From Candidatus Daviesbacteria bacterium (GTDB lineage Bacteria > Patescibacteriota > Microgenomatia > Daviesbacterales > UBA10151), in the NCBI GenBank assembly GCA_016432425.1, contig CP066688.1:642619-706618 (forward strand): DNA of 64,000 nt. Direction: 5' to 3'. Each line of letters opens with the position of its first letter. Position 1 is the first letter of the stretch. The notes under the pieces were generated by a model that saw nothing but the letters and a program-made list of their open reading frames with translations, was not told the origin of the DNA and did no database searches. This document shows, piece after piece, positions 4,344 to 53,682 of the stretch. A program made the position numbers and the translations under genes.

Positions 4344-5054
4344 ATGGCGCTAACCCATGCAATTATTTTAGCTGGAGGAGAAGGGAAAAGACTGCGTCCT
4401 CATACCGATCGTAAGCCCAAACCCTTGGTAGAGGTAGGGGGTAAACCCATCATGGCTTACCAACTGGATCAGCTAAAGAAGGCAAGGGTTAAAAATTTAG
4501 TCATTGCCTGTAGTTATAAAAAAGAAGTTTTGATTGAATATTTAACTGGTAATGGGTATGGATTTGACCACATTTCTTTTTCAGTGGAGGAGACTCCGCT
4601 GGGGCGTGGCGGGGGTATTAAACAGGCCATGAAGTTTTTGCCGGCTGACTGGGAACAGGTAATCGTGGCTAATGGCGATAACCTGTGGAAATTTAATATT
4701 GAAGCGATGGTGAAAAAACACCAAGAAAGAAATGCCATCGCCACAGTGCTTTTGGTGAAACTGAAAAGCCCCTACGGAATAGTAGAAGTAAATGATCAAG
4801 ATGAGATTGAGACTTTTCAAGAAAAGCCCATTTTGCCCCATTGGCTAAATGCCGGAGTTTACATTTTCTCCCGGGAGATTGAGCCACTTTTGCCTAATAT
4901 TGGCGATCACGAAGATCAAACTTTCCCTAAATTACCCAAGGAGAGGTTTATTGCTTTTAAAAGTGAAGGTTATTGGAAAGCAGTGGATACAGTAAAAGAC
5001 TTGGAAGAAGCGGAAAAAGAAGTTAGGGAGATTTTTTCTTTGTCGATGGGGTAG
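4344..5054 (+). CDS. Sugar-phosphate nucleotidyltransferase (NTP_transferase family)
   Basis: The N-terminus AIILAGGEGKRLRP...KPLVEVGGKPI is the G(x)GxR glycine-rich loop of sugar-1-P nucleotidyltransferases. Confidence 0.75.
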   Translation: MALTHAIILAGGEGKRLRPHTDRKPKPLVEVGGKPIMAYQLDQLKKARVKNLVIACSYKKEVLIEYLTGNGYGFDHISFSVEETPLGRGGGIKQAMKFLPADWEQVIVANGDNLWKFNIEAMVKKHQERNAIATVLLVKLKSPYGIVEVNDQDEIETFQEKPILPHWLNAGVYIFSREIEPLLPNIGDHEDQTFPKLPKERFIAFKSEGYWKAVDTVKDLEEAEKEVREIFSLSMG

Positions 5055-5808
5055 TTGGTTTTGCTGATTTAGTGGCAGATTCTGCTGAGGGAGTGGCAAT
5101 CTTTTTAGGTTTTAAGAAAGCTGGTTGGGAATAGATATAGACAAAATCAGCTGTCAGAATTTCATTTTTTCCCATCACTCCGGTGACAATCACAAAATTA
5201 TTTTTTGAAAGCTGCGATAAACTTACTGCTTGGCCATCTTTTTCTAAATCAGTTGAACTTACTGCAATAGTCACATTTTTCCCCTCTTTGGTGGTCAGAG
5301 TGACTAACTCATCAGCGATAGAGATAACCTGGCCCCACAGATGAGTTTTAACCTCTGGAGAGGGGGTAGGCCAGAGGATTACTTTTTTGGCAGTTAAAAC
5401 TCCATTTTCATCCACATCCCCTAAAGCTGCTATAAAATCCTCTGCCTGTAAGATTTTGAGGGAGTATTTGCTAATTTTTTTGTTATTACTGCTAAACTCG
5501 CTATCTTGGTTAATGCTAACAATTTTTGCCCCACTGTCAGTCGCTAAAGTTAAAGAAGCTTCCGATTTAAGTGTAACCATACCCACGTAAGCTTTATTTT
5601 GTAAATTTTTATTAACTTCCTGTTTCAACTGGGCTGCCTTAGAAGCAATCTCTTTTTGCAAGGCAGAGAGTTTCTCTTTTAAATTTGCAGAAGTACTGTT
5701 TTCAGCAGCATAAACATGGGATATGGGATAAGAATTAAGTATTAAGGGTAATACAAAAAGCAATAACCCCACAATACATAATACTAGACCCTTTTCCCTA
5801 ATTCTCAT
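5023..5808 (-). CDS. Secreted hypothetical protein (signal peptide, Lys/Ser/Thr-rich C-terminal tail)
   Basis: The N-terminus MRIREKGLVLCIVGLLLFVLPLILNSYPISHVYAAE is a signal peptide. It is near-identical to the N-terminus of CDS 26499. Confidence 0.6.
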   Translation of the reverse strand: MRIREKGLVLCIVGLLLFVLPLILNSYPISHVYAAENSTSANLKEKLSALQKEIASKAAQLKQEVNKNLQNKAYVGMVTLKSEASLTLATDSGAKIVSINQDSEFSSNNKKISKYSLKILQAEDFIAALGDVDENGVLTAKKVILWPTPSPEVKTHLWGQVISIADELVTLTTKEGKNVTIAVSSTDLEKDGQAVSLSQLSKNNFVIVTGVMGKNEILTADFVYIYSQPAFLKPKKIATPSAESATKSAKPTTPSTKKKSP

Positions 5809-6236: not shown

Positions 6237-6248
6237 AAAAACATTTTA

Positions 6249-18253: not shown

Positions 18254-18346
18254 TAAGCAAAGCTTGCCCATTCACCATGTTCAGGGTAAGCAGAGCTTGC
18301 CATCTGGTGATGGTAAGCAGAGCTTGCCTCCGCCAGCTGGCGGATG
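18254..18346. repeat. Three tandem units (33, 27 and 33 nt) with a shared head TAAGCA[A/G]AGCTTGCC and variable, partly palindromic tails. Unit 1 is the reverse complement of the 6249 unit.
   Basis: Read from sequence. The tail CCGCCAGCTGGCGG is a perfect palindrome. The array lies in the divergent intergenic region between the TPR gene and yebC. Confidence 0.85.
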
Positions 18347-19724: not shown

Positions 19725-20500
19725 AAGATATCACCTGGGGGGTGTCCCAGCTTGACACCTAAGGATAAGTAGCTTACCATGAATTCATGCCAGGTAGAAA
19801 AACTCCCCTTGTTACAGATGAGATTTATCATGTTTATAACAGAGGCATAAATAGACAGCCCACTTTTACCACTAAAAAGGAATATCAAAGAGCAATGTTG
19901 GCTCTTAAGTTTTATAAAGTTGCCAATCCACCGGTTAGATTGTCTAAATTTTTAGAATCTGATAAAGAGCGTCAGGCTGAAATTTTAAAAATGATGGATC
20001 AGGGGGAAAAATTAGTGGAGATTCTTTGTTTTTGCCTAATGCCGAATCACTTTCATTTCCTATTAAAACAGAAAAAGGAGGGTGGAATCTCGAAATTCTT
20101 AGGGAATTTCCAAAATAGTTATACCCGTTATTTTAACACTCTAAACGAAAGAGATGGTTCATTATTTTTAGACCAGTTTAAAGCCAAAAGGATAGAAACT
20201 GACGAACAACTCATTCATGTATCAAGATATATTCATTTAAATCCTTACACAGGTTTTGCAGTAAAATCCTTTAAGGAGTTAGAAAAGTATCCCTGGTCAT
20301 CATTCCCGAGTTACCTTACAGGTGATAATAGTTTTATAGAACCTGATTTAGTATTAGGAACGTTTAAAGGGGTTGGAGATTATAGAGAATTTGTTTTAGA
20401 CCAGGCTAATTATCAAAGAGAACTAAAGTTTATTGAGCATCTCCTTTTAGAATAATCCCTAGGTGCCTGCCTATGCCACCCCCCAGGTGTCAAATTAGTA
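19725..20500 (+). mobile_element. IS200/IS605-family (REP-associated tyrosine transposase-like) element flanked by 13-bp inverted repeats
   Basis: CACCTGGGGGGTG at 19733-19745 and CACCCCCCAGGTG at 20480-20492 are reverse complements. Small hairpins are also present (GGTGTC...GACACC). Confidence 0.6.
19787..20455 (+). CDS. Y1 HUH transposase (IS200-like / RAYT, Transposase_17 family)
   Basis: YHVYNRG near the N-terminus, the HUH motif LMPNHFHFLL, and the catalytic-Tyr region VSRYIHLNP. The protein is 222 aa, typical of the family. Confidence 0.8.
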   Translation: MPGRKTPLVTDEIYHVYNRGINRQPTFTTKKEYQRAMLALKFYKVANPPVRLSKFLESDKERQAEILKMMDQGEKLVEILCFCLMPNHFHFLLKQKKEGGISKFLGNFQNSYTRYFNTLNERDGSLFLDQFKAKRIETDEQLIHVSRYIHLNPYTGFAVKSFKELEKYPWSSFPSYLTGDNSFIEPDLVLGTFKGVGDYREFVLDQANYQRELKFIEHLLLE

Positions 20501-25872: not shown

Positions 25873-26502
25873 ATGGATAACCAAAATTTAAATTTGCCTA
25901 CAATTTCTCGGTTTTCCCCAATGAAGATAGTGTTTATTTTATTGGGGTTGGTTATTGTAGGTGAGGTCATTTGGGCCATTAGTCAGCTGACTACAGTTGG
26001 TTTGCCCACCCAAACCAACAACGCTACTGTGCCTAAAAATGTAGTCACTCCTGTTTCAATTGCCCAGGTAACTTTAAGCTCAGATAAAACTTCTGTTAAG
26101 GTGGGTGACAAAATTACAGTAGCCATCAATGTTTCCGCCAATAAAGAAACTGATGGGACAGATTTGATCATTAATTTTGACCCCACTTTGTTAAATGTTG
26201 ACACTCAAAACGAGAAAAAAGTTCCGGTAGTGACCGGCCAAATCTATCCTGACTATCCGGTTAATAGTTTGGATTCAGCCAAGGGCAAGATTACTGTCTC
26301 CGGAATTGCTTCTGCCCCTGGTGGAGTGGTGACTAACGGAGTTTTCGGGACTCTAAATTTAATGGCTAAAGCCCCCGGTACAGCCAAGCTTACCTTAGAG
26401 TTTACAAAAGGATCGACAACTGATACAAATGTAATAGAGGCCGGAGTGGGCACAGATATATTAAATAGTGTTTCTGATTTAACAATTAATATTACACCAT
26501 GA
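25873..26502 (+). CDS. Cohesin-like domain protein with an N-terminal TM anchor
   Basis: VKVGDKITVAINVSA...GTDLIINFDPTLLNV...GKITVSGIAS...GVFGTLNLMAKAPGTAKLTLEF follows the cohesin beta-sandwich sequence pattern. Confidence 0.6.
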   Translation: MDNQNLNLPTISRFSPMKIVFILLGLVIVGEVIWAISQLTTVGLPTQTNNATVPKNVVTPVSIAQVTLSSDKTSVKVGDKITVAINVSANKETDGTDLIINFDPTLLNVDTQNEKKVPVVTGQIYPDYPVNSLDSAKGKITVSGIASAPGGVVTNGVFGTLNLMAKAPGTAKLTLEFTKGSTTDTNVIEAGVGTDILNSVSDLTINITP

Positions 26503-27260
26503 AAATTAGAATTAAGGGATTAGTACTGTGTAGTGCGAGTTTATTGTTTTTGTTGTTACCCTTAATACTTAATTCTAATCCCATATCTCATGTTTACGCT
26601 GCTCAGGCAACTTTAAGCCTCTCCCCTGCCAGTGGTACAGTCAACCGTAGTTGCGCTTTTGCCTTGGAGGTAAATTTAGATACCGGAGGAGGCCAAACTG
26701 ATGGAACTGATGCTATTTTGCTCTACGATACTTCAGTTTTTTCTGCCACCTCGATTAATAAAGGTACTATTTACCAGGAATATCCTGGGACCGCAATAGA
26801 TGATAGCGCCGGTAGAGTCACTATCTCGGGGCTCGCTTCTGTGACCCAATCTTTTTCCGGCCAGGGCAAGCTCGCAACTGTTAATTTATTAGTCAAAGAT
26901 ACCGCCCCCACCGGCACTTCCCAAATTAAATTTGATTTTGACCCCAGCAACCCACAAAAAACTACTGACTCTAATGTGGTAGAACACACTAGCGTGGCAG
27001 AAATTTTAAGCTCAGTGACCAATGGAAATTATACTGTGGGGACTGGAACTTGTACTGGAACTGACTTAAATGGGAGTGGAGTCGGTGGAAGTAAAGGTGG
27101 AACTGGGGTGGAAACGACTCCTTCAGGACAGCTTAAAACTCTTCCTGCTGACCAGTTTAAAACCCTTCCCCCAGCTGGTAATGAAAAGCTTACTTTTACC
27201 TTAGCCATTTTAGGTTCTACCTTAACTATTCTGGGAATTCTTGGTTTAGTTTTACTGTAA
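26499..27260 (+). CDS. Cohesin-like domain protein with a signal peptide and a C-terminal LPxAG-like motif plus hydrophobic anchor
   Basis: The signal peptide MKIRIKGLVLC...NPISHVYAAQ is near-identical to that of CDS 5023-5808. The cohesin-like core reads ASGTVNRSCAFALEVNLD...GTDAILLYDTSVFS...GRVTISGLAS...GKLATVNLLVKDTAPTGTSQIKFDF. The C-terminus is LPPAGNEKLTFTLAILGSTLTILGILGLVLL. Confidence 0.6.
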   Translation: MKIRIKGLVLCSASLLFLLLPLILNSNPISHVYAAQATLSLSPASGTVNRSCAFALEVNLDTGGGQTDGTDAILLYDTSVFSATSINKGTIYQEYPGTAIDDSAGRVTISGLASVTQSFSGQGKLATVNLLVKDTAPTGTSQIKFDFDPSNPQKTTDSNVVEHTSVAEILSSVTNGNYTVGTGTCTGTDLNGSGVGGSKGGTGVETTPSGQLKTLPADQFKTLPPAGNEKLTFTLAILGSTLTILGILGLVLL

Positions 27261-40173: not shown

Positions 40174-40257
40174 TTAGTCTATTGGCGGTATTGTTTTTTA
40201 TAAGTACTGTCCACCAACTTGACTATGGGCTTATTAAGGAGTAAAATATTGTAAATT

Positions 40258-41001
40258 ATGTTAAGACGCTGGATCGAACAACAAGAAGTAACTGGTAACC
40301 TTAATGCTGTTAAAGATGGACAAGATCTCCTAGGTAAATATGGAGATGTATCTTTAGATAACGAGGATAAAATACCTACTTTAGTTAGTAGCCCAAAACA
40401 ACCTGCCGTTATAGATTTAGAAACAGAATGGCTAATAAAAGCAAATAGATTAGCATTTCTTTATGCCAAAGAATTGGGTCAATCAAGAGAACAATATATA
40501 GATTATTTGCCTAAATTTGAGCCCCAACCGGAAAGTTATAGATATAGATTTTACATACCAGCTATAGTCCAAGTTCCTCAAGGCAAGTTAACTCTTGTAA
40601 GGATGTTGGATATTCTAGGAGTTACCAATTATTTATTAAACCTTAGAGATATAAAAGATTGGCAAAAAGACCCACAAAAGTTTAAAACTCCAAATAAACC
40701 TTATACAACTTATCTCCATGATGGTTTAATAAACCTAGGTAGGACTCCAAGAGATGTTAGATCATCTTTAGTTTACGGCGAAAGAGGAGGGACTGTTTTT
40801 GATGGTTTGGCACTACTGGCTCAAGATCCTGATATATTAAAAAATCATTATCTGGATTTACCTGGCTCTCAATATGGGTCTGGCGGCGTTCCGTTTCTGG
40901 GCGGTTGGGGTGCTAGGCCGGGGCTCCGCTACTTTCGGGATGACAGTGTCGGTCCGAAAGGTGGTTCTGTGGTTGCGGGAAGAAATATTGTAACTAAGTA
41001 A
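40258..41001 (+). CDS. Hypothetical protein whose last approximately 32 codons form a DGR-type variable region (putative diversified ligand-binding protein)
   Basis: The 3' 96 nt (40882-40977) match a downstream repeat (41324-41419), with mismatches almost exclusively at adenines of the downstream copy. An SD (AAGGAG) lies upstream of the ATG. Confidence 0.6.
   Translation: MLRRWIEQQEVTGNLNAVKDGQDLLGKYGDVSLDNEDKIPTLVSSPKQPAVIDLETEWLIKANRLAFLYAKELGQSREQYIDYLPKFEPQPESYRYRFYIPAIVQVPQGKLTLVRMLDILGVTNYLLNLRDIKDWQKDPQKFKTPNKPYTTYLHDGLINLGRTPRDVRSSLVYGERGGTVFDGLALLAQDPDILKNHYLDLPGSQYGSGGVPFLGGWGARPGLRYFRDDSVGPKGGSVVAGRNIVTK
40882..40977 (+). repeat. DGR variable repeat (VR) candidate
   Basis: Base-by-base comparison with 41324-41419 over 96 aligned positions gives 28 mismatches. 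In 25 of them the other copy has A where this copy has G, C or T. Confidence 0.7.
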
Positions 41002-41323
41002 TTGGACTTTGACCCTTTTGGCATCTTGATTTTTGGTTTCCAAATTTGTTAAATTATTTCTGAAATTAGGTTAATGAATCCTTAGGCTTTCAGCTTTAGG
41101 GTCACCGAAATCTTCTTTAAGACTAAGAAATCACCAGAGTTTTGTTGAAAATACTTTTAACAAAAGCGTGTGAGAAATTCTTAAGGTACTCCGTGTTTTT
41201 TCCTTTGATCTGCTGGTTGGCGGACGATGAAATTCAGTGGTGAGAATGTTAAGCGAAGCTTGCAAACTTCGTTTGTCAAACCACGGTGGGGTTTTTGTGC
41301 GGGGAGAGACACATAATAAGTCT

Positions 41324-41419
41324 GACAGCGTTCCGTATCTGAACGATTGGAATGATAGACCGAAGCTCAACTACAATCGGGATGACAATGCCAATCCGAA
41401 CTATGGTTCTGTAGTTGCG
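41324..41419 (+). repeat. DGR template repeat (TR) candidate. It is A-rich at the positions that vary in VR, and lies inside the spurious-looking ORF 41237..41569.
   Basis: Same alignment. This copy retains A at all 25 A-type mismatch positions. Confidence 0.7.
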
Positions 41420-41539
41420 ATAGTATCTTTTGAATTTTTAAAGTATCTTAACCAGCCTAATTTTAACCAATCACTACAATCTTATTTAGGTTATTTATCT
41501 CATGCAAATTCTTATCGTTTAACTAATAAATTAATAAGC

Positions 41540-42205
41540 TCAGTTCGGTTTTGGCATTTTCAGCATTAAATATTCCAAAATAGCCCGTTGGTTAACATTT
41601 TGCTTAAACCATTTTTTAGCCTCAAAAAGGGTCTTTAAAAACTGGGTAGCAGGTTCCGGATTGGTAGTTAGTTGATCGCGAAAATAAAAAATTAATCCAT
41701 CTAAAAACTCTCCCCGCTCTTCCAGTTTTTCAATATATTTAAATTGTTCTTCCAGTGAGGATTTTAATAATTTTTCTATATCTTTTTTATAATCCACCCC
41801 GTAGGTGGATTCAGTTGGCACCTTGTCTTTTATTGGATATTTTCTGATGATTTCACAGCGTGACAAAATAGTTGGTAAAAAATAACTCTCAGAGTTGGCA
41901 CCGAGAATTACCAAACCACTTTCTGGCAGCTCCTCGAGAGTTTTTAATAAAGTATTTTGGGCCACTTGAGTCAGCGTGGCAGCATCTTCTAAAACAGCTA
42001 CTTTGCCCTTAGCCTGGACAGGCTTAAAAGCAAAATGTTCTTTAATTTTTTTAGCTTCATTAATGCCCAGTTTGGAATCTGCGGGAATAAAAAGTAGATC
42101 CGGATGGTTTCGATTAATATTTAAGGAGGCAAGAATATTGTCAATCTCCCCTATTCTTGCTTGGGGATCGCCAGCCAGCAAAATTTTAGCTACCATATTT
42201 CGCAT
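41540..42205 (-). CDS. holB: DNA polymerase III delta-prime subunit-like (clamp-loader AAA+ lid/sensor region)
   Basis: NTLLKTLEELP and PTILSRC are sensor motifs characteristic of HolB/DnaX-family proteins. The protein is short at 221 aa. Confidence 0.65.
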   Translation of the reverse strand: MRNMVAKILLAGDPQARIGEIDNILASLNINRNHPDLLFIPADSKLGINEAKKIKEHFAFKPVQAKGKVAVLEDAATLTQVAQNTLLKTLEELPESGLVILGANSESYFLPTILSRCEIIRKYPIKDKVPTESTYGVDYKKDIEKLLKSSLEEQFKYIEKLEERGEFLDGLIFYFRDQLTTNPEPATQFLKTLFEAKKWFKQNVNQRAILEYLMLKMPKPN

Positions 42206-42304
42206 TCTAATTGGGAATCAAGGAAAAATCAATGAAACTAATTGACACTTTGCATTGATTTTGAGCATAATGAAATTAATCCGCTTGAGGGCGGAAAATT
42301 GTCT

Positions 42305-44026
42305 ATGGCAAACGGTTCTGTCCCAAATACTGCTCAAACAGTTTTAGCTCTAGAAGATATTCTTTTAAAACAAGGCTTGCTTTCCCAGTCTCAAGCCTCG
42401 GCCATTAAACTGGAAAGTATTAACTCCGGTAAAACTGCAGAACAAATTATTCAGGAGCATTCACTTATCCCGGCTGATAAAATTTTAACCGCCAAAGCCC
42501 AAATTTTAAATGTTCCTTTTGTCAAATTAGAAGGTAAAGCTATTCAAACACAACTTTTGACTTTGATTCCGGAAGCGGTCGCCCGCCGCTACAGCGTTAT
42601 TCCTTTTGATATGGAACAAGATCAGCTCTCTGTGGCCATGGCCGATCCATTGGATTTGGGGGTAATTCAATTTATTGAGAAAAAATCCGGCAAAAGAATT
42701 AAGCCCTACTTGGCCTCCCCGGCCGAAATTATTAAAACTATTGGTGAACAATATGCCCAAAATTTGGCTCCGGAAGTAACTTCTGCCCTACAAGAAGTGG
42801 CTGAGTCGCAACCAATCTCTAGCACCCACACTGAGGCGCCGGAGGTAATTAAAGAAGCGCCGGTGGCTAACATTGTCAATCAACTGCTGGAATATGCCAT
42901 GAAAACCCGGGCTTCTGATATCCATATTGAACCGGAAGAAGATCGGACTCGCGTCCGCTACCGTATTGACGGAATTTTGCAGGAAAAGATTATTTTACCC
43001 AAAGGGGTGCATGAGGCTTTAATCTCCCGGATTAAAATTATGTCTACTTTAAAAATTGACGAGCGGAGATTGCCCCAGGATGGGCGTTTTAGTTTTGAGT
43101 TTGGCGGTAAAGAAACTGATATCCGGGTTTCTACTGTCCCCACGGTTTTTGGGGAGAAAGTGGTGATGCGGTTACTCCCCAAAGGAGGTGGGGCCCCCAC
43201 TTTAATGGAGTTGGGACTCCGTGGTTCTTCTTTAAAAAATCTGGAAACCCAACTGCTACGTCCTCATGGGATTATTTTGATTACCGGACCGACTGGTTCC
43301 GGAAAAACAACTACCCTCTATTCTATTTTAACTAAAGTTTCTACCATCAAAGTTAATGTTGTGACAATTGAAGATCCTGTTGAGTATCAAATCCCCGGAG
43401 TTAATCAGGTTCAGGTTAATCCGCAAATTGGTTTAACTTTTGCCTCAGCCCTGCGCTCGTTTTTGCGGCAGGACCCCAATATTATTATGGTGGGAGAAGT
43501 TCGGGACACTGAGACAGCAGAACTGGCCATTCAAGCAGCCCTCACCGGCCACCAAGTTTTTTCTACCGTCCATACTAATTCGGCTGCCGGAGCAGCTCCC
43601 CGGCTTTTGGATATGGGAGTGGAGCCGTTTTTATTGACTTCGGCTTTGAATGTGGCAGTAGGCCAGCGGGTAGTACGTAAAATTTGTCCCTCTTGCCGGG
43701 TTCAGTATGATGCTCCCCCGGAAGTGATTGAAAATATTAAAGCTACTTTAGGCAAATTGATTCCCCAGAACCAACCTTTTAAATTATTTAAAGGTGCGGG
43801 TTGCCCCAAATGTAACAGTACCGGTTATTTGGGGCGGGTGGGAATTTATGAAGTGCTGGTGGTGACAGAGGGAATTATTAAATTAATTTTAGAACGGGCT
43901 TCTATCCAAAATATTGAAAATGCGGCAATACAGCACGGGATGATTACCATGAAACAGGATGGTTATTTAAAAGTTTTGGAAGGTGTAACTACCATGGAGG
44001 AGGTACTCAGAGTGGCTCAGGATTAG
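42305..44026 (+). CDS. pilB: Type IV pilus assembly ATPase PilB (GspE family)
   Basis: An N-terminal GSPII_E_N-like region, Walker A GPTGSGKTTTLYS, Asp/His boxes, and a C-terminal tetracysteine CPSCR...CPKC. Confidence 0.9.
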   Translation: MANGSVPNTAQTVLALEDILLKQGLLSQSQASAIKLESINSGKTAEQIIQEHSLIPADKILTAKAQILNVPFVKLEGKAIQTQLLTLIPEAVARRYSVIPFDMEQDQLSVAMADPLDLGVIQFIEKKSGKRIKPYLASPAEIIKTIGEQYAQNLAPEVTSALQEVAESQPISSTHTEAPEVIKEAPVANIVNQLLEYAMKTRASDIHIEPEEDRTRVRYRIDGILQEKIILPKGVHEALISRIKIMSTLKIDERRLPQDGRFSFEFGGKETDIRVSTVPTVFGEKVVMRLLPKGGGAPTLMELGLRGSSLKNLETQLLRPHGIILITGPTGSGKTTTLYSILTKVSTIKVNVVTIEDPVEYQIPGVNQVQVNPQIGLTFASALRSFLRQDPNIIMVGEVRDTETAELAIQAALTGHQVFSTVHTNSAAGAAPRLLDMGVEPFLLTSALNVAVGQRVVRKICPSCRVQYDAPPEVIENIKATLGKLIPQNQPFKLFKGAGCPKCNSTGYLGRVGIYEVLVVTEGIIKLILERASIQNIENAAIQHGMITMKQDGYLKVLEGVTTMEEVLRVAQD

Positions 44027-44027
44027 A

Positions 44028-45080
44028 ATGAATATACAACAATTACTGGAACTGACAATTGAAAAAAATGCTTCGGATTTACATCTGTCGGTGGGTTTTA
44101 TTCCCACCCTGCGCATCCATGGCCAACTAATGCCCATTGCCGGAATGCATCCTGTCAGCCCGGAAGAGATGGACTCAGTAGTAGTAGAGATGCTGACCCC
44201 GCAGCAAAAAGAGGTTTTTCAAAAGGAGTTGGAACTGGATTTTTCTTTTCAGTTTACTGATAGAGGGCGGTTTCGGGTTAATCTTTATCATCAAAAAGGG
44301 CAACTGGCAGCCGCCTTGCGACTGATCCCTTTGAAAATCCGTGGTCTGGAGGAGCTGGGAGCGCCCCTCATTTTAAAAAAACTGCCAGATTTAAAGCAGG
44401 GGTTTATTTTAATTGCCGGTCCCACCGGTCATGGTAAATCAACACTTCTGGCCTCTTTTATTAACCAGATTAACCAGACTCGTCCGGTTCATATTGTGAC
44501 CATTGAAGATCCTATTGAGTATGTTTATCCTCCAGGCCAAGCTTTAATCTCTCAGCGAGAAATGTACAACGATACCAAAAGCTGGGCCGCAGCCTTAAAA
44601 TACGCCCTGCGGGAAGACCCGGATGTAGTTTTAATCGGTGAAATGCGGGATTTGGAGACCATTTCTTCTGCCATGACCATTGCTGAAACCGGACATTTAG
44701 TTTTTGCTACCTTACATACTAACTCTGCTGCCCAATCAGTGGACCGGATTATTGATGTTTTCCAGGAAAACCAGCAACCTCAAATCCGCCTGCAGCTAGC
44801 CTCTACACTGGAGACGATTATTTCGCTGCGTCTGGTTCCGACGATCAATCCGGGGCGAGTTTTGGCAACTGAAATCTTATTTGCCAGCCCGGCAGTGAAG
44901 AATATTATCCGGGAAGGTAAAACTTATATGATTGATAACTTAATTCAGACCTCGGCGGAGCTGGGGATGGTGAGTCTGGAAAGCTCGCTGGCAGAACTCG
45001 TTAAAGCAGGCACGATCTCCGCAGAAGAAGCTCTCAAGTATGCTCTCCACCCTGAACTTTTGGGGAAACTGCTGAAATGA
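44028..45080 (+). CDS. pilT: Twitching motility/retraction ATPase PilT
   Basis: ASDLHLSVG is PilT-type, followed by Walker A GPTGHGKST and the AIRNLIRE-like NIIREGK. Confidence 0.9.
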   Translation: MNIQQLLELTIEKNASDLHLSVGFIPTLRIHGQLMPIAGMHPVSPEEMDSVVVEMLTPQQKEVFQKELELDFSFQFTDRGRFRVNLYHQKGQLAAALRLIPLKIRGLEELGAPLILKKLPDLKQGFILIAGPTGHGKSTLLASFINQINQTRPVHIVTIEDPIEYVYPPGQALISQREMYNDTKSWAAALKYALREDPDVVLIGEMRDLETISSAMTIAETGHLVFATLHTNSAAQSVDRIIDVFQENQQPQIRLQLASTLETIISLRLVPTINPGRVLATEILFASPAVKNIIREGKTYMIDNLIQTSAELGMVSLESSLAELVKAGTISAEEALKYALHPELLGKLLK

Positions 45081-45111
45081 ATTTTAAAGGCGAAGCTTTC
45101 AAAAGAAGATC

Positions 45112-46314
45112 ATGAATTTTATCTACCGCACCAAAGATAAAGAAGGGCTGGACCATAAAGGGGAAATTGAGGCTGCTGACCAGCGGGCAGCAGCAACTCT
45201 TTTGCACAAACGCGGTTTTGTGGTCCTGGCCTTAAAGCCTAAATCAGAGACGGAAGGAGGCAGTTTGCTGGATCGTTTTTTCTCCCGGGTAACATTTTCC
45301 GATTTAGTGGACCTAACTCGCCAGTTGGCTACGATGGTGGGAGCCGGACTGGTAGTTTCAGAGGCGCTGGATATTTTACAAGATCAACAAAGCAATAAAG
45401 TCTTTAAAAAAACTTTGGAGGAAATCAGTAGCGACGTGAAAGGCGGGTTGACTTTAGGCCAAGCCATGAGCAAACATCCCCAAGTTTTTCCTGTGCTCTA
45501 TGTTAATTTAATTAAAAGCGGTGAGACGGCTGGTAAAATTGACCAGGTGCTTTTGCGGATGGCAGATAATTTGGAAAAACAACGGGAATTTAAAGCCAGG
45601 GTTAAAGGGGCTATGATTTACCCTGTGGTGGTAATTACCATGATGATTGGAGTAATGTTTTTGATGTTTGCCTTTGTGATTCCCCGTTTAACTGCCATCT
45701 ATACTCAAAGCAGTATGCAACTACCACTGCCTACCAGGATTTTAATCACTGTTTCTAATCTTACAGCCGGTTATTGGTATGTGATTATTTTAATAATAAT
45801 TACCATTATTTTAATCTTTAAGCGCTGGAAGCAAACGCCGGAAGGACATTTATCTCACGATAAACTTTTATTAAGACTGCCTTTGATGGGTAATTTAACC
45901 ACTAATGTTAATCTGGCAGATTTTACCAGAACTTTTGGCCTGTTAGTTTCTGCCGGAATTCCTCTGCTGGAGGCCATTAATATTGTCGAAGGGGTGACCG
46001 GTAACCAAGTGTTTAAAAACTCTCTCAAGCAAGCTTATGTGGGAGTGGAGCGGGGTTTGCCTTTTTCTAATATGGTATCCGGCGACCCTTTTCCGCGGAT
46101 TGTGGGACAAATGGTCAGAGTAGGAGAAGAGACCGGTAAAATGGATGAAGTTTTCTTTAAACTGTCTGCTTATTTTGAAACAGAATCAGATAATTTGGTG
46201 AAGAATTTAACCACCGCTATTGAACCAATTGTGCTGGTAATTTTAGGGCTAGGAGTAGCCTTCCTGGTAATTTCTATTATTCTACCTATATACAACCTCA
46301 CCAGTAGTTTTTAA
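45112..46314 (+). CDS. pilC: Type IV pilus platform protein PilC (GspF family)
   Basis: Two GspF repeats, 3 TM helices, and motifs SGETAGKID / GEETGKMDE. Confidence 0.88.
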   Translation: MNFIYRTKDKEGLDHKGEIEAADQRAAATLLHKRGFVVLALKPKSETEGGSLLDRFFSRVTFSDLVDLTRQLATMVGAGLVVSEALDILQDQQSNKVFKKTLEEISSDVKGGLTLGQAMSKHPQVFPVLYVNLIKSGETAGKIDQVLLRMADNLEKQREFKARVKGAMIYPVVVITMMIGVMFLMFAFVIPRLTAIYTQSSMQLPLPTRILITVSNLTAGYWYVIILIIITIILIFKRWKQTPEGHLSHDKLLLRLPLMGNLTTNVNLADFTRTFGLLVSAGIPLLEAINIVEGVTGNQVFKNSLKQAYVGVERGLPFSNMVSGDPFPRIVGQMVRVGEETGKMDEVFFKLSAYFETESDNLVKNLTTAIEPIVLVILGLGVAFLVISIILPIYNLTSSF

Positions 46315-46342
46315 TTTCCCTCTTGACTGAGAGCTTATAGCT

Positions 46343-46930
46343 GTGAATATACTTAAGTATATGCGCCGAACTGCCCTCGGTTATAATTTGTTGTATCAAA
46401 AAAAACGCTCCCCCCTGGGGTTTACCTTAGTAGAACTTTTAGTTGTCATTGCCGTGATGGTTGTTTTAGTGGTGATGGTGATGGTTTTTCTTAATCCCTT
46501 TGAGCAGGTAAAAAGAACCAGAGATGCCAACAGGCTAACGGATTTAGCCCTAATAAAACAAGCAATTGATATTTCTTCGGAGGAGGCTACTGGTTCAGCC
46601 GAGCAGATACTTTGTCATGACACTACTGCTCCCTGCCGCGGCTTCAGTACTAGTGACAGTAAATCTAATAATGGCACGGGTTGGTTAAAAATTGATTTAA
46701 GTAATAATAAAACTGCGGCTTTGAGTAGCTTACCGGTTGATGAAATTAATGATGCGACCTATCATTATACGTATTGTTCAGATGGGAAGAATTGGGAAAT
46801 CAATGCTGTCTTGGAATCTGAAAAGCAAGCTCCATTGATGGGCAGTGATGGTGGCAATGATAATGCCAAGTATGAAATTGGTTCAGATCTGACTCTAATT
46901 TCCTCTACTGGCGGAGTGTGTAATTTTTAA
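46343..46930 (+). CDS. Type IV pilin-like protein (prepilin with a long leader)
   Basis: ...KKRSPLG/FTLVELLVVIAV is a class III signal with Glu at +5. Confidence 0.7.
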   Translation: MNILKYMRRTALGYNLLYQKKRSPLGFTLVELLVVIAVMVVLVVMVMVFLNPFEQVKRTRDANRLTDLALIKQAIDISSEEATGSAEQILCHDTTAPCRGFSTSDSKSNNGTGWLKIDLSNNKTAALSSLPVDEINDATYHYTYCSDGKNWEINAVLESEKQAPLMGSDGGNDNAKYEIGSDLTLISSTGGVCNF

Positions 46931-46955
46931 ATACTGGTGGCAAGTTTCTCCTTAA

Positions 46956-47774
46956 TTGATTTATGATTTAGACATGTTAGCTCTCTTAGGTTTTATAGTC
47001 GGTGCAGTTTTAGGCAGTTTTATTAAAACGTTGACCGATCGTATTCTAAGGCAAGATTCATTGGGTGGTAGATCCCGTTGCCCCCACTGCTCTCACCCTT
47101 TGGCTGCTTTAGATTTAATACCACTGCTTTCTTTTATATTTTTACAGGGCCGGTGCCGTCATTGTCACAAAAATATTGGTCTGGAATATTTGCTGGTAGA
47201 AGTAGTCATGGGAGTTTTGATTGCTTACTTATTTATACAGTATGTTCCCCAAACTATGGATTTGAGCACTGCAGGTGGCGGATGGATTTCAAGTTTCCAA
47301 CTGCTGTTTAAAATTTTTCTAATTAGCGTATTAGTAGCTTTAGCTTTAGCTGACCTTAAAAAAATGCTGATTCCGGATCGGATTGTTTTGCCAGCAATTT
47401 TGATCAGCACAGTTTACCTTTTAATCTTAGCAGGTTCTATTGATATTCAATTATTAATACCTAATTTCTTATCTGCTTTTGTAATTTGGTTATTTTTTAT
47501 GGCAATCATATTGGTCACTGGTGGCAAAGGCATGGGTGGAGGTGACGCTAAGCTGGGAGTTTTAATCGGTTTAAGCGTGGGTTTTCCTTTAAGCTTACTT
47601 TCCATCATGTTATCTTTTTTCTTGGGAGCAGGAGTGGCTTTAATTTTAGTGGCTCTCCGTAAAAGACGTTTTGGTCAAACTCTCCCCTTTGGGCCATTTA
47701 TGGTTTCCAGCACCATTATTTCCCTGTTTTGGGGATACTCTATCATTGATTGGTACCTAAAATTATCTTTTTAA
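46956..47774 (+). CDS. pilD: Prepilin peptidase PilD (A24 family)
   Basis: The zinc-binding pair CPHC...CRHC is present together with the catalytic Asp regions (LADL..., GGGDAKLG), in 8 TM helices. Confidence 0.88.
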   Translation: MIYDLDMLALLGFIVGAVLGSFIKTLTDRILRQDSLGGRSRCPHCSHPLAALDLIPLLSFIFLQGRCRHCHKNIGLEYLLVEVVMGVLIAYLFIQYVPQTMDLSTAGGGWISSFQLLFKIFLISVLVALALADLKKMLIPDRIVLPAILISTVYLLILAGSIDIQLLIPNFLSAFVIWLFFMAIILVTGGKGMGGGDAKLGVLIGLSVGFPLSLLSIMLSFFLGAGVALILVALRKRRFGQTLPFGPFMVSSTIISLFWGYSIIDWYLKLSF

Positions 47775-47822
47775 AAATTTCCTCTTGACAAGATATTTTT
47801 TTTATTTAACAATGGAATAGTA

Positions 47823-48254
47823 ATGAGAAAATTTCTGCCCAGAACTGCCGCTAATCCTCAAGGTTTTACTTTAATTGAGTTATTGGTAGTGATCTCTATT
47901 ATTGCTATTTTATCAGTAGTAGGGGTAACAGTTTTTACCAATACCCAGAAAAACTCCCGTGATACCAGAAGAAAGGCTGATGTTGATTCCATTTCTAAGG
48001 CTTTGGAAGCAAATTACACCAGTGGATCTGCCACGCCCTACCCAATAGTAACTGCTAGTATGTTTACTAGCGGGATTATTCCTGCTGATCCCCAAAATAG
48101 TGGTGCATATGTTTATTCCGGAATCCCCGCTGCAGCGGCAACTACCTATACTGTTTGTACCAAAATGGAAAGCGGTAGCGGCGGTAATGCTTCTGACACT
48201 AACGGTGCAGCAGCTGCTAATGGACCTTTCTACTGCAAGAAAAATCAACAATAA
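47823..48254 (+). CDS. Type IV pilin (major-pilin candidate)
   Basis: MRKFLPRTAANPQG/FTLIELLVVISIIAIL. Confidence 0.8.
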   Translation: MRKFLPRTAANPQGFTLIELLVVISIIAILSVVGVTVFTNTQKNSRDTRRKADVDSISKALEANYTSGSATPYPIVTASMFTSGIIPADPQNSGAYVYSGIPAAAATTYTVCTKMESGSGGNASDTNGAAAANGPFYCKKNQQ

Positions 48255-48302
48255 TTTCCCCGCCAATTGACATTGGACAATTGACATTGGACAATTAAAT
48301 TA

Positions 48303-48794
48303 ATGTCCAAAGGTTTTACTTTAATTGAATTATTGGTAGTAATCTCCATTATTGGGATTTTATCTTCAATTGGGATAGTCAGTTACTCTACTATTTTAAA
48401 AAACTCCCGTGATGCCAGAAGACAATCTGATATTAAAGCTATCCAATCAGCTCTTGAGCAATACCGGGCTGACCACAGTTTTTATCCCACTAGTTTAAAT
48501 TTAAGTTCTCTTGCTACCATTGATTCTAATTCCGGCAATCCCAACCCTCAAACTAATAATATCAATGTATATTTAAATAATACTCCAGTAGAGCCCAGTT
48601 TAAATAGCAGCTACCCTTATCTCTACAGCGCCTTACCAGCTAATTGTAATAACATTGGTACCAAATGTAGTAGCTATTGTATCTATGCTAAACTGGAAAA
48701 TTCAGTCTCCAAGGCCAGCCAATGCAGCGACAAACCTTTTACTTGTAATGCCAACAGTTCCAATTGTTACACTCTCAAGGCGACTATCCCATGA
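48303..48794 (+). CDS. Type IV pilin paralog (Cys-rich C-terminus)
   Basis: MSKG/FTLIELLVVISIIGIL. It is preceded by the duplicated promoter-like repeat at 48265-48302. Confidence 0.8.
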   Translation: MSKGFTLIELLVVISIIGILSSIGIVSYSTILKNSRDARRQSDIKAIQSALEQYRADHSFYPTSLNLSSLATIDSNSGNPNPQTNNINVYLNNTPVEPSLNSSYPYLYSALPANCNNIGTKCSSYCIYAKLENSVSKASQCSDKPFTCNANSSNCYTLKATIP

Positions 48795-49309
48795 ACAAGG
48801 GCTATACTTTAGTTGAACTGCTGGTAGTGATGACAATTTTGTCCTTAATTGGATTAACTAGTTTTATCAATCTGGGTAATTTCCGGGAAGACAAATTGCT
48901 TGATACCAGTTTAACTAATTTACAATCTTTAATCAGAAAGGCTCAATCTGATGCCAGCACCGGCCTGCGCTGTTCCGGGGTCGGTGGAGCCACCTGGTCT
49001 GTTGAATTTAAAGATCGCAAAAGCATTAATTTAAATTGCAAAGCCGCCAGCCAACAAAATGCTACCACTGTTTCAGTACTTTCTTTGGGGGGAGATATCC
49101 AAATTCAGTCAATTAGTGGTGACAGCGGTTGCCAGAGTAGCTTCCCTGCCAATTCTGTGACTGTTAATTTATTGCCGGTGGCTGCGGGAATGACTTTTAT
49201 TGACCCCACCGCCAGTTGTATTAGTACCAGTAAAACATTGAATATTACCCTATCTGGCAAGACCGGAACCAGAACTGTTAATATTAATAAAGGAGGAAGT
49301 ATCAACTGA
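48791..49309 (+). CDS. Type IV pilin-like protein
   Basis: MNKG/YTLVELLVVMTIL. The start is set at the ATG overlapping the previous stop (ATGA overlap). Confidence 0.75.
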   Translation: MNKGYTLVELLVVMTILSLIGLTSFINLGNFREDKLLDTSLTNLQSLIRKAQSDASTGLRCSGVGGATWSVEFKDRKSINLNCKAASQQNATTVSVLSLGGDIQIQSISGDSGCQSSFPANSVTVNLLPVAAGMTFIDPTASCISTSKTLNITLSGKTGTRTVNINKGGSIN

Positions 49310-49341
49310 ATTTTAGACTTTTAAATGAGATTGGGCAAAGT

Positions 49342-49815
49342 TTGATGGAGGTGATTGTGGTGATTACAGTGGCTTCCCTGGTAGTGGGGGCGCTAACTTT
49401 TGCCACCATCTCTAGTTTGCGTAATGCCCAGTTTTCCAAAAACCAAACTCAATCAACCAAACTAGCTCAAGCGGGATTGGAAGCAGTTAGAAACATCCGC
49501 AGTAAAGATGGCACCGTCACTTTTACTTATGCCGGAGGTACGACTGCTAAATTTTCTGATTTGTGGGCTATTCCCGGAGGAATGAATTCATCCTGCAGCC
49601 CTTGTTATTTTAAACTTGATCATAATAACTTAACTTTAACTGGAGTGACCGCAGTGACTTTTGAAACTTTACCTGGTAATTTAGAAAGGCAAGTGCAAAT
49701 TTGGGATAAAGCTTCTTCTGCCAGTGTGGAAAAAACAATTTCCGTCATCGTGCGCTGGAGTGATTTTGCAGGCACGCATCAATCCCAACTGACCTCAATC
49801 CTGAGAAAAATATGA
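49342..49815 (+). CDS. Pilin-like protein with an uncertain start. The in-frame upstream sequence encodes ...NEIG/QSLMEVIVV without a canonical start codon.
   Basis: A hydrophobic N-terminus with Glu at +5 relative to an upstream Gly. An AGGAGG sits at 49291-49296. Confidence 0.55.
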   Translation: MMEVIVVITVASLVVGALTFATISSLRNAQFSKNQTQSTKLAQAGLEAVRNIRSKDGTVTFTYAGGTTAKFSDLWAIPGGMNSSCSPCYFKLDHNNLTLTGVTAVTFETLPGNLERQVQIWDKASSASVEKTISVIVRWSDFAGTHQSQLTSILRKI

Positions 49816-50378
49816 ATAAAAACGGGTTCACCTTGGTGGAAATTTTAGTAGTGATCGCAATTTTAACCGTGATGGGGGTAATTTTAAGTGAGATTTTTTT
49901 CCGCTCGGTTCGTGGTAGCGCTCAGGCAGAAATTATCTCCCGGATTAAACAAAATGGCCAGGCCGCCCTGGAAACCATGGATAAGACTTTAAGGAGCGCT
50001 GATGGGCTGGTGTGTGTGAGCAGTGATAATTCAGCAATTTTATTTGTCAAAAGTGGGGTTTATACCCGTTATACTTATACTGCTGCCACTTCTTCTGTCA
50101 ACGGCTCACTTTCAGTGGATTATCCTACTAGCGGGGATTGCAGCGCCCCCAAAGTTTCCGTGGCCTACTTAACTGACATTGGCAGCAGCGATCCTAAAAC
50201 CGGTGTTTCGATCTCTGGAACTTCTGGCAGCAGCGGAGTTTTTGTCCGTACTAAGCAAGCAGGAGTTAAAGATGTTGTGATGATCAGTTTTGATATTGGG
50301 GTGCCTTTAGGCTTACCTACTTATCTGAAGCAACGAATTGATCCCAGTAGTTTTCAAACTATAGTGGAACTGCGCTAA
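49812..50378 (+). CDS. Type IV pilin-like protein
   Basis: MNKNG/FTLVEILVVIAIL. Confidence 0.78.
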   Translation: MNKNGFTLVEILVVIAILTVMGVILSEIFFRSVRGSAQAEIISRIKQNGQAALETMDKTLRSADGLVCVSSDNSAILFVKSGVYTRYTYTAATSSVNGSLSVDYPTSGDCSAPKVSVAYLTDIGSSDPKTGVSISGTSGSSGVFVRTKQAGVKDVVMISFDIGVPLGLPTYLKQRIDPSSFQTIVELR

Positions 50379-50417
50379 CAATTGACAATGGACAATTGAC
50401 AATGGACAATTAAATTA

Positions 50418-51272
50418 ATGTCCAAATTCTTAAATGCCAGTGGCCAAATAGTTTTAATATTACTTTTAGTAATTACTGTCAGTCTCGGGATTGGTTTGGC
50501 AGTAATCCAGCGGTCTCTAACTGATATCTCTACTGCCTCGAATGTAGAGCTATCCTCCCGGGCTTTTTCTGCGGCAGAAGCAGGCATTGAGAGAGCTTTA
50601 AATGGGAATACTTCCGGAGTGACTGTGGGAGAAACCGGCAACAGCTCTTCTGCCACCCTGACTGACTCAGGCCTTTTGCCTTCTGCCAATCAAGCTTTAG
50701 AATACCCCCCTCTGTCTAAGGAAGATACTGCCCAATTTTGGTTAGCAGACCCCAACACTTTAAACGATTATTACACCCAAAACACCCTGGATATTTATTG
50801 GGGAACGCAAAATATTGCTGATCCTAATGACCGCCCGGCCTTAAGTTTAACCTTAATATATTTTTCTGGCGGCAAGTATCAAAGCAAAAAGTATTTTTTT
50901 GATCCTAATTCTACCCGTATCAGCACTAATGGTTTTAAAGCTCCGGACAATTGTAGCAATGTTTTAACTGCCATTACTACCAGCTACGGCAGCAACCGCA
51001 GTTTTTATTGCACTAGCAAAATTTCCAATTTACCTTCGGGACTAAAATTACTGCGGGCTAGATTTTTATATAACACTACTCCTCAGGCACTGGTAGTTAA
51101 GCCGACTGGCAGTTGTAATAATGGTTGCTCTCTTCCGCCTCAAGCCAGACTTTTTACCTCGGTAGGGATAGCCGGTAGCACTCAACGGGTATTGCAGCTT
51201 TTTAAATTGGACAAAACTGTGCCGCCATTTTTTGATTATGCAATTTTCACCGCAGGAGACTTAACTAAATAA
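50418..51272 (+). CDS. Minor-pilin-like / PilX-like protein with an N-terminal hydrophobic anchor
   Basis: MSKFLNASGQIVLILLLVITVSLGIGLAVIQ, in pilus-locus context. The same duplicated upstream repeat is present. Confidence 0.55.
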   Translation: MSKFLNASGQIVLILLLVITVSLGIGLAVIQRSLTDISTASNVELSSRAFSAAEAGIERALNGNTSGVTVGETGNSSSATLTDSGLLPSANQALEYPPLSKEDTAQFWLADPNTLNDYYTQNTLDIYWGTQNIADPNDRPALSLTLIYFSGGKYQSKKYFFDPNSTRISTNGFKAPDNCSNVLTAITTSYGSNRSFYCTSKISNLPSGLKLLRARFLYNTTPQALVVKPTGSCNNGCSLPPQARLFTSVGIAGSTQRVLQLFKLDKTVPPFFDYAIFTAGDLTK

Positions 51273-51273
51273 T

Positions 51274-52305
51274 ATGGCTAAAATTAGTATTGGACTGGAT
51301 ATCGGTTTCACCTCAATTAAAGTAGTGGCACTGGATTTGAGTGCCAAACTTCCTAAAGTAATTTCTTTTGGTTCAATTGTTTCCCCTCAGCCGGGTATTT
51401 CGTCCGAGGCAGATATTGAGTTAGAGGCAGTGGCCACAGCCATTAAAAACTTGCTCCAGGCAGCCAAAATTGAGGGTAACGAGGTGACTATTGCCTTACC
51501 TGAGTCAAAAATTTTTACCAGAGTAATAGATGACTTGCCGCCTTTAACTGATAAAGAACTCGCCTCAGCCATTACTTTTGCCGCGGAAGAATTTATTCCC
51601 CTACCGGTGAGTGAGCTTAGTTTAAATTATCAAGTTTTATCCCGGTCCAAAGAGAAAACTTCCAAAACAGTAGTTTTGGTGGTAGGCAGCCCCACCGGTC
51701 TCATTAACAAATATATTAAAGTTTTGAACCTAAGTAATTTAAAACCTAAAGCCATTGAAACTGAAATTATTGCTGCGGCCCGCTCCCTGGTGGGTAACAA
51801 TCCCCTTTCCCCTACTACTTTAATTTTACAAATGGGTGCCTCCACCACTGATTTTGCCGCGGTCTCTCATGGGATGATCTGGCAGACCCGTTCCATCGCT
51901 ACCGGCGGCTTGGCGCTGACCCGGGCCTTGGCAGCCCATTTAAATTTTGAGCTGCCCCAGGCAGAAGAGTATAAAAAAACTTATGGACTGGTGCAAGATG
52001 CACTGGCAGGTAAGGTATTTGAGGGCTTAAAACCGGTAGCTGATATTATTGTGGGTGAAACTCGGCGGGTGATCCAATCATATGAGACAAAATATCCCCA
52101 AGATAAAATTAAGCGGGTGATTCTTTCCGGTGGTGGTTCAAAATTGCCGGGGTTTGTCATCTATTTTGCCAACAATTTAGGGGTAGAAGTTCAAGACGGT
52201 GATCCCTGGGCAATGTTGGCTAAAGAACCGGCTCTGTCAGCCAAATTAGCTAGTGCCGGTTCACTCTACACAGTGGCAGTGGGGTTGGCTTTAAGGGAAC
52301 AGTAA
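51274..52305 (+). CDS. pilM: Type IV pilus assembly protein PilM (actin-like ATPase fold)
   Basis: ISIGLDIGFTSIKVVAL is the N-terminus, the protein is about 340 aa, and it is followed by pilN. Confidence 0.85.
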   Translation: MAKISIGLDIGFTSIKVVALDLSAKLPKVISFGSIVSPQPGISSEADIELEAVATAIKNLLQAAKIEGNEVTIALPESKIFTRVIDDLPPLTDKELASAITFAAEEFIPLPVSELSLNYQVLSRSKEKTSKTVVLVVGSPTGLINKYIKVLNLSNLKPKAIETEIIAAARSLVGNNPLSPTTLILQMGASTTDFAAVSHGMIWQTRSIATGGLALTRALAAHLNFELPQAEEYKKTYGLVQDALAGKVFEGLKPVADIIVGETRRVIQSYETKYPQDKIKRVILSGGGSKLPGFVIYFANNLGVEVQDGDPWAMLAKEPALSAKLASAGSLYTVAVGLALREQ

Positions 52306-52306
52306 T

Positions 52307-52855
52307 ATGGCTAAAAATCTTAGCATTAATTTATTGCCAGTTGAATATGCTCAAGTTTATGCCGCAGATGAGCGTTTCCGAAAAATCCAACGGATTGGTA
52401 TTAGTATTTTAGTACTGTTGATTTTTCTCTCTTCCACCACTTTCGCCCTGTCTTTATTGCAAAATTCTAATATTTTACAAGCTCAAGCTAAATTACAGGT
52501 AGAAGAAAGTGCCATTAATAAATTTAAGCCTCAAGAAGAGTCAGTGATACTGCTTAAAGATCGTTTAAACAGTCTGCAAAAACTTTCCACTGCTCCCTCT
52601 CAAAGTTCTGCGATGTACAGTTTAGTGGATGCTTTAATGTCTGCCTCAATCAGCCCGACATTGATCGTCACTGATACCTCAGGTAATCTCTCTTTAAGTT
52701 TAGCTACTACCAATAGCAGTGAGATAGATAATTTTATTGCCAGTTTAACTAATCCGCAAAAAAATCAAAACTTAGTTTCCAAAGTAGATGTAGAAAGTTT
52801 ATCCCGAGGCAAAGACGGATTATATAGGGTGAATTTAAAAATATTTAGTAAATGA
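52307..52855 (+). CDS. pilN: Type IV pilus assembly protein PilN
   Basis: INLLP at the N-terminus, a single TM, and coiled-coil. Confidence 0.75.
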   Translation: MAKNLSINLLPVEYAQVYAADERFRKIQRIGISILVLLIFLSSTTFALSLLQNSNILQAQAKLQVEESAINKFKPQEESVILLKDRLNSLQKLSTAPSQSSAMYSLVDALMSASISPTLIVTDTSGNLSLSLATTNSSEIDNFIASLTNPQKNQNLVSKVDVESLSRGKDGLYRVNLKIFSK

Positions 52856-52958
52856 CTAAACGATGGTTACTAAATATTAGGAAGAGGTCGAACTAGACTT
52901 TTCGTGAGAGAAAACTAAATAGCAAATTATAGTTTATTCAGAAAAGTCTAAGAAGAAT

Positions 52959-53678
52959 ATGGAATTTGATAAAGAAGAAATTTTAAAATTTTATACTCAA
53001 AATAAGCTGGTAATTTTTCCGGCATTAGTCATTATTTCCAGTTTGTTGATTATGATACTGGTAGTTTACCCTACTTTATCAGGGCTACTTTCCAGCAACC
53101 AAAAATTAAATGACCTGCACAATAAATCTCAGGTCTTGACTGCCAAAGCCGCGGAGCTGGCCAGCTTAAACCAAACAGAGCTAAACAATAATTTGCGAGT
53201 TTCTACTTCAGCTTTGCCTACTGACCAAGATTATGCCAGTGCCTTTGGGACAATACAATCTCTGTCTGCTATGAGTGCTTATAGTATTACCTCAGTACAA
53301 ATTGTCCCCAATTTACCAGCGGGATTTCCCTCTAAAATCCCCGGTTTTACCCTAAAAGTAGAGATGTTGGGTTCCAGGGCTACTTTAAATACTTTTCTTT
53401 CTGCTTTAGAAAGTTCTCCCAGGGTAATGAAGGTAGCGGGATTTGAGGTGAACCCTGCCAAAACCGGCAATACCATTAATGTAGTTGTTAATATTGCGGT
53501 ATTTTATTCCCCCAGCCCGCGCAGTTTAGGTAGTGCAGATGTTCCTCTCCCCTCAATAACCAGTGAGGATAAGGCTGTGATTGCTAATTTAGCTAAAGCT
53601 AATACCATTATTAATCAAGGATTGGGTGAGCCTCTGGAAACTTATGTTTCCAAGGGCAAATCAGATCCGTTTAATTAA
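52959..53678 (+). CDS. pilO: PilO-like pilus assembly protein
   Basis: An N-terminal TM plus coiled-coil, and its position after pilN. Confidence 0.55.
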   Translation: MEFDKEEILKFYTQNKLVIFPALVIISSLLIMILVVYPTLSGLLSSNQKLNDLHNKSQVLTAKAAELASLNQTELNNNLRVSTSALPTDQDYASAFGTIQSLSAMSAYSITSVQIVPNLPAGFPSKIPGFTLKVEMLGSRATLNTFLSALESSPRVMKVAGFEVNPAKTGNTINVVVNIAVFYSPSPRSLGSADVPLPSITSEDKAVIANLAKANTIINQGLGEPLETYVSKGKSDPFN

Positions 53679-53682
53679 GAGT

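Follow-up and report, generated by a model that had tools for sequence, protein, structure and literature searches.

Does a textbook variable/template repeat pair mean a working diversity-generating retroelement (DGR)? The question is raised by a 64-kb stretch of DNA (the window, meaning the whole stretch that was analysed) in an 820,589-bp Candidatus Daviesbacteria contig, where the 3' end of a small gene is repeated downstream with differences concentrated at adenines. DGRs of the Candidate Phyla Radiation (CPR) were reportedly first surveyed by Paul et al. in 2017. Their target proteins usually lack recognisable domains (Roux et al. 2021, PMC8144416), and more than half of candidate DGRs have been inactivated or discarded, with premature stops, truncations, or poor matches between template repeat (TR) and variable repeat (VR) (Wu et al. 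2018, PMC5758913). Here, we report that the window locus belongs to a known, very large DGR clade, that its target is an unannotated lectin-fold protein, and that it has been disabled by a deletion whose end points we mapped (Table 1).

Table 1. Features of the DGR locus, in window coordinates
Feature	Position	Strand	Remarks
Promoter-like site, TTGACT-17-TAAAAT	40219..40247	+	Putative promoter just 5' of the target gene; 10 of 12 consensus positions match
Target (variable-protein) gene, 247 aa	40258..41001	+	ORF; identical to NCBI 'hypothetical protein HYW45_03580' of a Candidatus Daviesbacteria metagenome-assembled genome
VR	40878..40977	+	Codons 208-240 of the 247-codon CDS 40258..41001; ends 8 codons before the stop
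Structured leader	41002..41319	+	From target stop to TR; P1, 41075-41104; P2, 41132-41172; P3, ~41209-41224; P4, 41237-41284
Chimeric ORF, 110 codons	41237..41569	+	3' part of leader, TR, antisense avd remnant, and RT tail; called as a 107-aa gene in public assemblies
TR	41320..41419	+	28% A; 7 AAY codons in the VR reading frame
3' arm of long-range duplex	41422..41437	+	Pairs with 41175-41190; encloses P3, P4, and TR; starts 3 nt past TR
avd remnant, last 9 codons (GWLRYFKNS)	41431..41457	-	Stop codon lost; DNA alignment of 41400-41457 with L010 2161-2218, where intact cassettes end avd
Deletion junction	41457..41458		avd tail abuts RT tail cleanly, in the order and orientation of intact loci
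RT remnant, last ~37 codons (NFNQSLQSYLGYLSHANSYRLTNKLISSVRFWHFQH, then stop)	41459..41569	+	tblastn E values of 5.5e-8 and 1.8e-7 against two intact RTs

The repeat pair and its target gene

A repeat search of the window returned VR and TR as an ungapped direct repeat of 100 nt (76% identity; offset, 442 nt), in the same place as the hand alignment of the preliminary description (40882-40977 against 41324-41419). That alignment had counted 28 mismatches, 25 of them at template As; retabulated over 40882-40977 (96 positions), the numbers are 24 and 21. Its counts of three mismatches at other bases (here C>T, C>A, and T>G) and of roughly seven unchanged template As were confirmed, the variable copy does lie at the 3' end of an ORF in direct orientation (codons as in Table 1), and the VR peptide that it quoted is correct against CDS 40258..41001. 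The bias to template As stood on realignment; by the hypergeometric distribution, 21 or more of 24 mismatches would hit the 28 As of the TR with a probability of 9e-13. It is also one-directional: the VR holds eight As, and the A is on the VR side in one mismatch only. By codon position, the mismatches are distributed 8/13/3 (first/second/third). The repeats are a genuine variable/template pair of a DGR, and the VR bears the footprint of adenine-mutagenic copying from the TR.

Substitutions at template As in the window VR comprise 16 A>G, 3 A>T, and 2 A>C. Mainly A>G substitution was likewise seen elsewhere in the clade, where the VRs of L002, L005, L010, and L023 were compared (16 of 20 at L023, against 16 of 21 here), and the VR of locus L012 has zero A>G, with four A>T and five A>C. 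The three non-A mismatches of the window are the highest number of the set, but the excess is not significant; no such mismatch occurs in L010, L012, or L023, and over their full repeats L002 has one and L005 two. Across the 64-kb window, no second VR matching the TR was found.

No terminator-like site was found between the target gene and the TR. The target protein consists of an N-terminal helical segment, a disordered linker, and a C-type-lectin-like domain, with no signal peptide or transmembrane segment evident. Searches against Pfam and NCBIfam gave no match, a sequence-profile search against PDB chains detected no similarity, and a Foldseek search of the predicted structure against the PDB returned nothing significant. 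The protein models as a divergent C-type-lectin fold, which agrees with the fold that the preliminary description had proposed to look for. Its 90%-identity cluster has a single member. A set of 32 homologues shares a conserved body and a hypervariable C terminus, in which a fixed scaffold can be read (DLPGSQ.GS..AP.L..W.G.P.L...A.P..GSVVAGR.I.T).

Intact relatives, leader RNA, and the deletion

Complete cassettes were found at the loci of several homologues (P0022, P0024, P0003, P0010, and P0027), all in the order target, ~320 nt of noncoding sequence, a TR that matches the target's 3' end, an oppositely oriented bAvd gene, and a gene for an RVT_1 reverse transcriptase (RT; 316-350 aa). The bAvd family (PF22296) was recognised at L002 and L005, the RTs carry the DGR-type motifs LGNLTSQ and YADD, and the VR/TR pairs show the same adenine-only pattern (e.g., 17 of 17 in L010). 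Because homologous targets sit in complete cassettes, the DGR origin of the window pair is confirmed. The preliminary description, which had read the pair as a DGR, was right about this origin; activity in cis does not follow, the locus's own RT and avd having been deleted. With >7,270 database proteins at E <1e-20, the clade of these RTs is very large, and many of the matches listed are labelled as Microgenomates or Patescibacteria. None of the 120 matches listed of these >7,270 came from the 820,589-bp contig of the window.

The ~320-nt spacer is conserved across loci whose proteins are only ~50% identical. From eleven leader sequences, RNAalifold predicted 36 pairs, 23 of which show compensatory double changes; helices P1, P2, and P4 were taken from this prediction, and P3 was recognised by eye. 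Counted more widely, a conserved, covarying structured RNA (~250-320 nt) occurs in the window and at L002, L005, L010, L013, L018-L021, L023, L029, and L030. An invariant block of the leader (AAATTCTTAAGGTACTCCGTGTTTT) includes 41175-41190, the 5' arm of a long-range duplex that closes around the TR. Over eight loci, this duplex pairs in 87.5% of cells, against 23-47% in slid controls, and four pairs are changed on both sides; in the window, 14 of the 16 positions are paired, including a G-C to A-U compensatory change. Locus L019, in its leader and post-TR arm, was a source of compensatory changes supporting the duplex.

Rfam 15 gave no matching family for the leader/TR region (E up to 1) and one tRNA only for the whole window at gathering thresholds. 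A leader-motif scan of genome contigs produced three matches in unrelated taxa, approximately the chance expectation. For the region past the TR (antisense to avd) in six intact loci, RNAalifold gave no covariation support and no convincing structure. At positions invariant in five intact loci, the window departs at 9 of 111 in the leader and 2 of 49 in the TR, which falls inside the leave-one-out range among the intact loci themselves (7-19 and 0-10, respectively). Since there is no excess decay and the closing duplex is intact, either the deletion is recent or the leader and TR are still constrained. Both results speak against a fossil of great age.

Neither a six-frame scan for YxDD/GxxxSQ nor tblastn found an RT in the 64-kb window. 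The motif matches that the scan did return were rejected as RTs, being only DnaB, GyrA, and similar proteins. Past the TR, the match to intact cassettes runs for 38 nt, up to 41457, antisense to the last nine avd codons (the tblastn match of this remnant is weak on its own), and RT-like sequence starts at 41458/41459 with NFNQSLQSYLGYLSHANSYRL and continues to a stop codon at 41567-41569. Because the avd and RT tails abut at 41457/41458, one deletion accounts both for the near-complete loss of avd and for that of the RT's catalytic part. The missing segment measures 1,223 bp relative to L010 (2219-3441) and ~1,259 bp relative to L002; lost with it were avd codons 1 to ~75 and RT codons 1 to ~305, so that nothing of the catalytic domain is left. 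The final 30 nt of the RT tail are shared with the 3' end of the convergent DNA polymerase III delta' gene (41540..42205, minus strand), and this overlap is probably why the tail survived. The chimeric ORF that spans the junction most likely encodes no real protein.

Independent assemblies of SRR12113420, SRR12113429, and SRR12113430 were 100% identical to the window over 1.5-3.4 kb, with the same junction, VR, TR, and flanks; their contigs span the end of gyrB, target, VR, leader, TR, junction, and downstream genes. The VR is monomorphic at the consensus level in at least three sequencing runs, consensus assemblies being blind to low-frequency variants.

Downstream of the locus lies a long type IV pilus cluster (42242-53700, read from ORF translations only), with two secretion ATPase-like genes, a PilC-like membrane protein gene, a prepilin-peptidase-like gene, and a number of small genes whose pilin-type N termini resemble one another (repeat family D2). 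Directly 5' of the pilin-like genes 48303.. and 50418.., the motif CAATTGACA(A/T)TGGACAATTGACA occurs at 48264-48311 and 50379-50426, and again at 11769-11821; it may be a shared promoter or operator. Other repeats of the window include a short family (GGCAAGCTTTGCTTACC / GGTAAGCAGAGCTTGCC plus spacer) at 6246-6353, 11292-11367, and 18242-18328, made of tandem 27- to 33-nt units in both orientations, whose arms are up to 98% complementary between sites. A GC-rich element of ~30-35 nt (CACCTGGGGGGTGTCCCAGCTTGACACCTA) lies at 14512-14541, 19732-19766, and 20455-20489, with two inverted copies flanking ORF 19787..20455. Finally, a 105-nt inverted repeat (5704-5808 and 26499-26603, 81% complementary) covers the 5' ends of ORFs 5023..5808 (minus) and 26499..27260 (plus), which are probably paralogues.

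The decay series and known systems

With the window locus counted, nine loci are decayed and six intact, and every stage of loss was seen among the relatives. At the window and L023, avd and RT are gone with leader and TR whole; in L023, a terminator-like hairpin and then a topoisomerase gene come next. Loci with a truncated TR are L012/L022 and L029. In L012/L022 (L012, 6160-6260), ~15 nt are missing from the 3' end of the TR, which continues in frame into RT residue ~272 through a TGGGG common to TR and RT, and the deletion looks microhomology-mediated; the window junction, in contrast, offered no convincing case of microhomology. In L029 (1380-2080), only ~20 nt of TR remain, and beside them lie a perfect hairpin (TTGTTACACCCCAGGGGTGTAACA) and, on the minus strand, a Y1 (IS200/IS605-type) transposase gene, an arrangement that suggests an IS-associated truncation. 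A truncated leader (148-190 nt) with no TR was kept at L011 and L017/L018, and nothing remains past the stop codon at L028, L031, and L003. In homologues P0008 and P0009, which have no cassette left, the former VR is identical at 37 of 42 residues (88%), against 82% for the whole protein; for this reason, we consider that frozen VRs persist as ordinary coding sequence under ordinary selection.

Several details of these relatives are recorded here in their own right. The L012 target has a premature stop and ends five codons early, and a thioredoxin gene directly follows the RT remnant of that locus. A 434-aa database protein (P0147) combines RVT_1 and a thioredoxin domain and may be a read-through gene call at an intact version of the L012 locus. 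The RT of L019 (reverse strand, ~1071-2004), in a more distant cassette, matches in two pieces in different frames, as a frameshifted pseudogene or through sequencing error.

Compared with the hallmarks of a DGR, the window locus has an A-biased TR/VR pair, though with three non-A mismatches, and a VR that lies 3'-terminally in its ORF, in a variation-tolerant fold (C-type lectin or Ig). Of the flanking RNA, it retains the upstream leader together with the upstream/downstream duplex, and everything beyond +38 after the TR is deleted. The RT gene and the adjoining Avd gene of the cassette are both absent, with only their terminal remnants left.

The closest known systems are CPR DGRs (the 'CPR set' of PMC5758913; DGR clade 2 of PMC8144416), with which the locus shares a Daviesbacteria/Microgenomates host, a chromosomal, nonphage location, and a small target that has a C-terminal VR, a nearby TR, and no recognisable domain, transmembrane segment, or signal peptide; its relatives carry Avd and an RT of ~320-350 aa, as those DGRs do. 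It differs from them in its deleted RT and avd and in a target family for which Pfam and NCBIfam have no model. Bordetella phage BPP-1 orders its DGR as mtd-avd-TR-brt, whereas the order in the window clade is target-leader-TR-avd (opposite strand)-RT. Unlike BPP-1, the window has a 320-nt structured leader between VR and TR, a cellular rather than phage context, no recognised GC-rich IMH or hairpin, and no enzyme genes. In BPP-1, priming requires the RNA downstream of the TR, which holds the priming site and Avd- and RT-binding stem-loops, and an upstream/downstream duplex ('cPRT Stop') was described there and predicted in many other DGRs (Handa et al., bioRxiv 10.1101/2023.10.23.563531). The window's leader/post-TR duplex resembles this 'cPRT Stop'.

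Like the truncated DGRs of the survey by Wu et al. (2018), the window has a truncated retroelement with recognisable repeats; unlike them, it has deletion end points known to the base and a stage of decay that can be ordered against those of related loci. Treponema denticola TvpA and other variable proteins of C-type-lectin/FGE fold differ from the window target, the N-terminal part of which is distinct, has no lipoprotein signal, and belongs to a protein for which neither PDB-chain similarity nor a significant Foldseek match was detected.

A probable recent inactivation and its alternatives

The locus is most probably an early-stage DGR fossil, that is, a recently inactivated relic with a frozen VR. 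Its ancestral cassette, as reconstructed from the intact relatives, would have comprised target, ~320-nt structured leader, TR, opposite-strand avd, and RT. RT-Avd would have bound the RNA from leader through TR and made a cDNA from it, misincorporating bases opposite adenines; this cDNA would have replaced the VR, recoding ~20 positions of a C-type-lectin-like binding face. One deletion of ~1.2 kb (1,220-1,260 bp) then took almost all of avd and the first ~305 RT codons and left VR, leader, TR, and 38 post-TR nt. Because its own RT-Avd and most of the downstream RNA are lost, we infer that the locus no longer diversifies in cis and that the VR is therefore frozen, as SGGVPFLGGWGARPGLRYFRDDSVGPKGGSVVA, in a target that would now be evolving as an ordinary gene.

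Two readings would deny that any cassette was lost here. Were the downstream copy a paralogous gene fragment with random divergence and no link to retrohoming, it would account only for there being a direct repeat of 76% identity; with 21 of 24 differences on the 28 As of one copy and homologous loci that share the architecture together with RT and Avd, this has practically no chance of being correct, and random divergence is refuted by the mismatch table and the intact homologous cassettes. The missing RT could instead be an artefact of assembly or binning, the real genome having an intact cassette at the locus, given that the genome is metagenome-assembled and that VR/TR repeats can confuse assemblers. 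We rate this as highly improbable: no repeat relationship links the avd tail to the RT tail that it meets at the junction, and misassembly is ruled out because three separate assemblies, from different runs, share the junction and are 100% identical through VR, leader, TR, and both flanking genes.

A different objection accepts the deletion and questions the loss of activity. Target, leader, TR, and closing duplex could form a nonautonomous unit that is still diversified by RT-Avd supplied in trans, the source being another cassette of the clade at a different place in the genome. Conservation of leader and TR matches that of intact loci, the long-range duplex persists and includes a compensatory change, and two independent RT-less loci (L023 and L012) have VR/TR mismatches at A positions only. 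Given how highly conserved the leader is in the clade, recognition by a foreign RT-Avd is plausible, multiple DGRs are present in ~10% of DGR-bearing complete genomes (Wu et al. 2018, PMC5758913), and the window, at 64 kb of an 820,589-bp contig, leaves room for a second RT-Avd. We nevertheless judge supply in trans unlikely. RT is absent throughout the 64 kb, and the RNA beyond +38 past the TR, the counterpart of which holds the priming and protein-binding sites in BPP-1, is gone. The 3' end of the TR is lost in L012, and other relatives grade to nothing, which fits decay better than maintenance; moreover, the VR is identical across independent runs, and the window has its three non-A mismatches. 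In a broader form, RT-less target/leader/TR modules would be kept as 'satellite' units, diversified in trans by an RT-Avd of the same small CPR genome, with leader and closing duplex as the recognition element. That proposal is quite doubtful; if it were true, the recurrent loss of avd-RT with a pristine leader and TR (window and L023) would be streamlining, not decay.

On the preferred reading, that of a recently inactivated relic, inactivation is an ordinary fate for DGRs, and a textbook A-biased VR/TR pair is not proof of ongoing hypermutation. Repeat-based detectors would overcall the locus, and RT-based ones would miss it. Because the gene was kept after loss of the cassette, the lectin-fold protein appears to be valuable even when frozen. 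Together with its relatives, the locus provides a base-resolved series of DGR cassette loss in streamlined CPR genomes, and the covarying leader and post-TR duplex offer a lead to RT-Avd recognition in a very large CPR clade.
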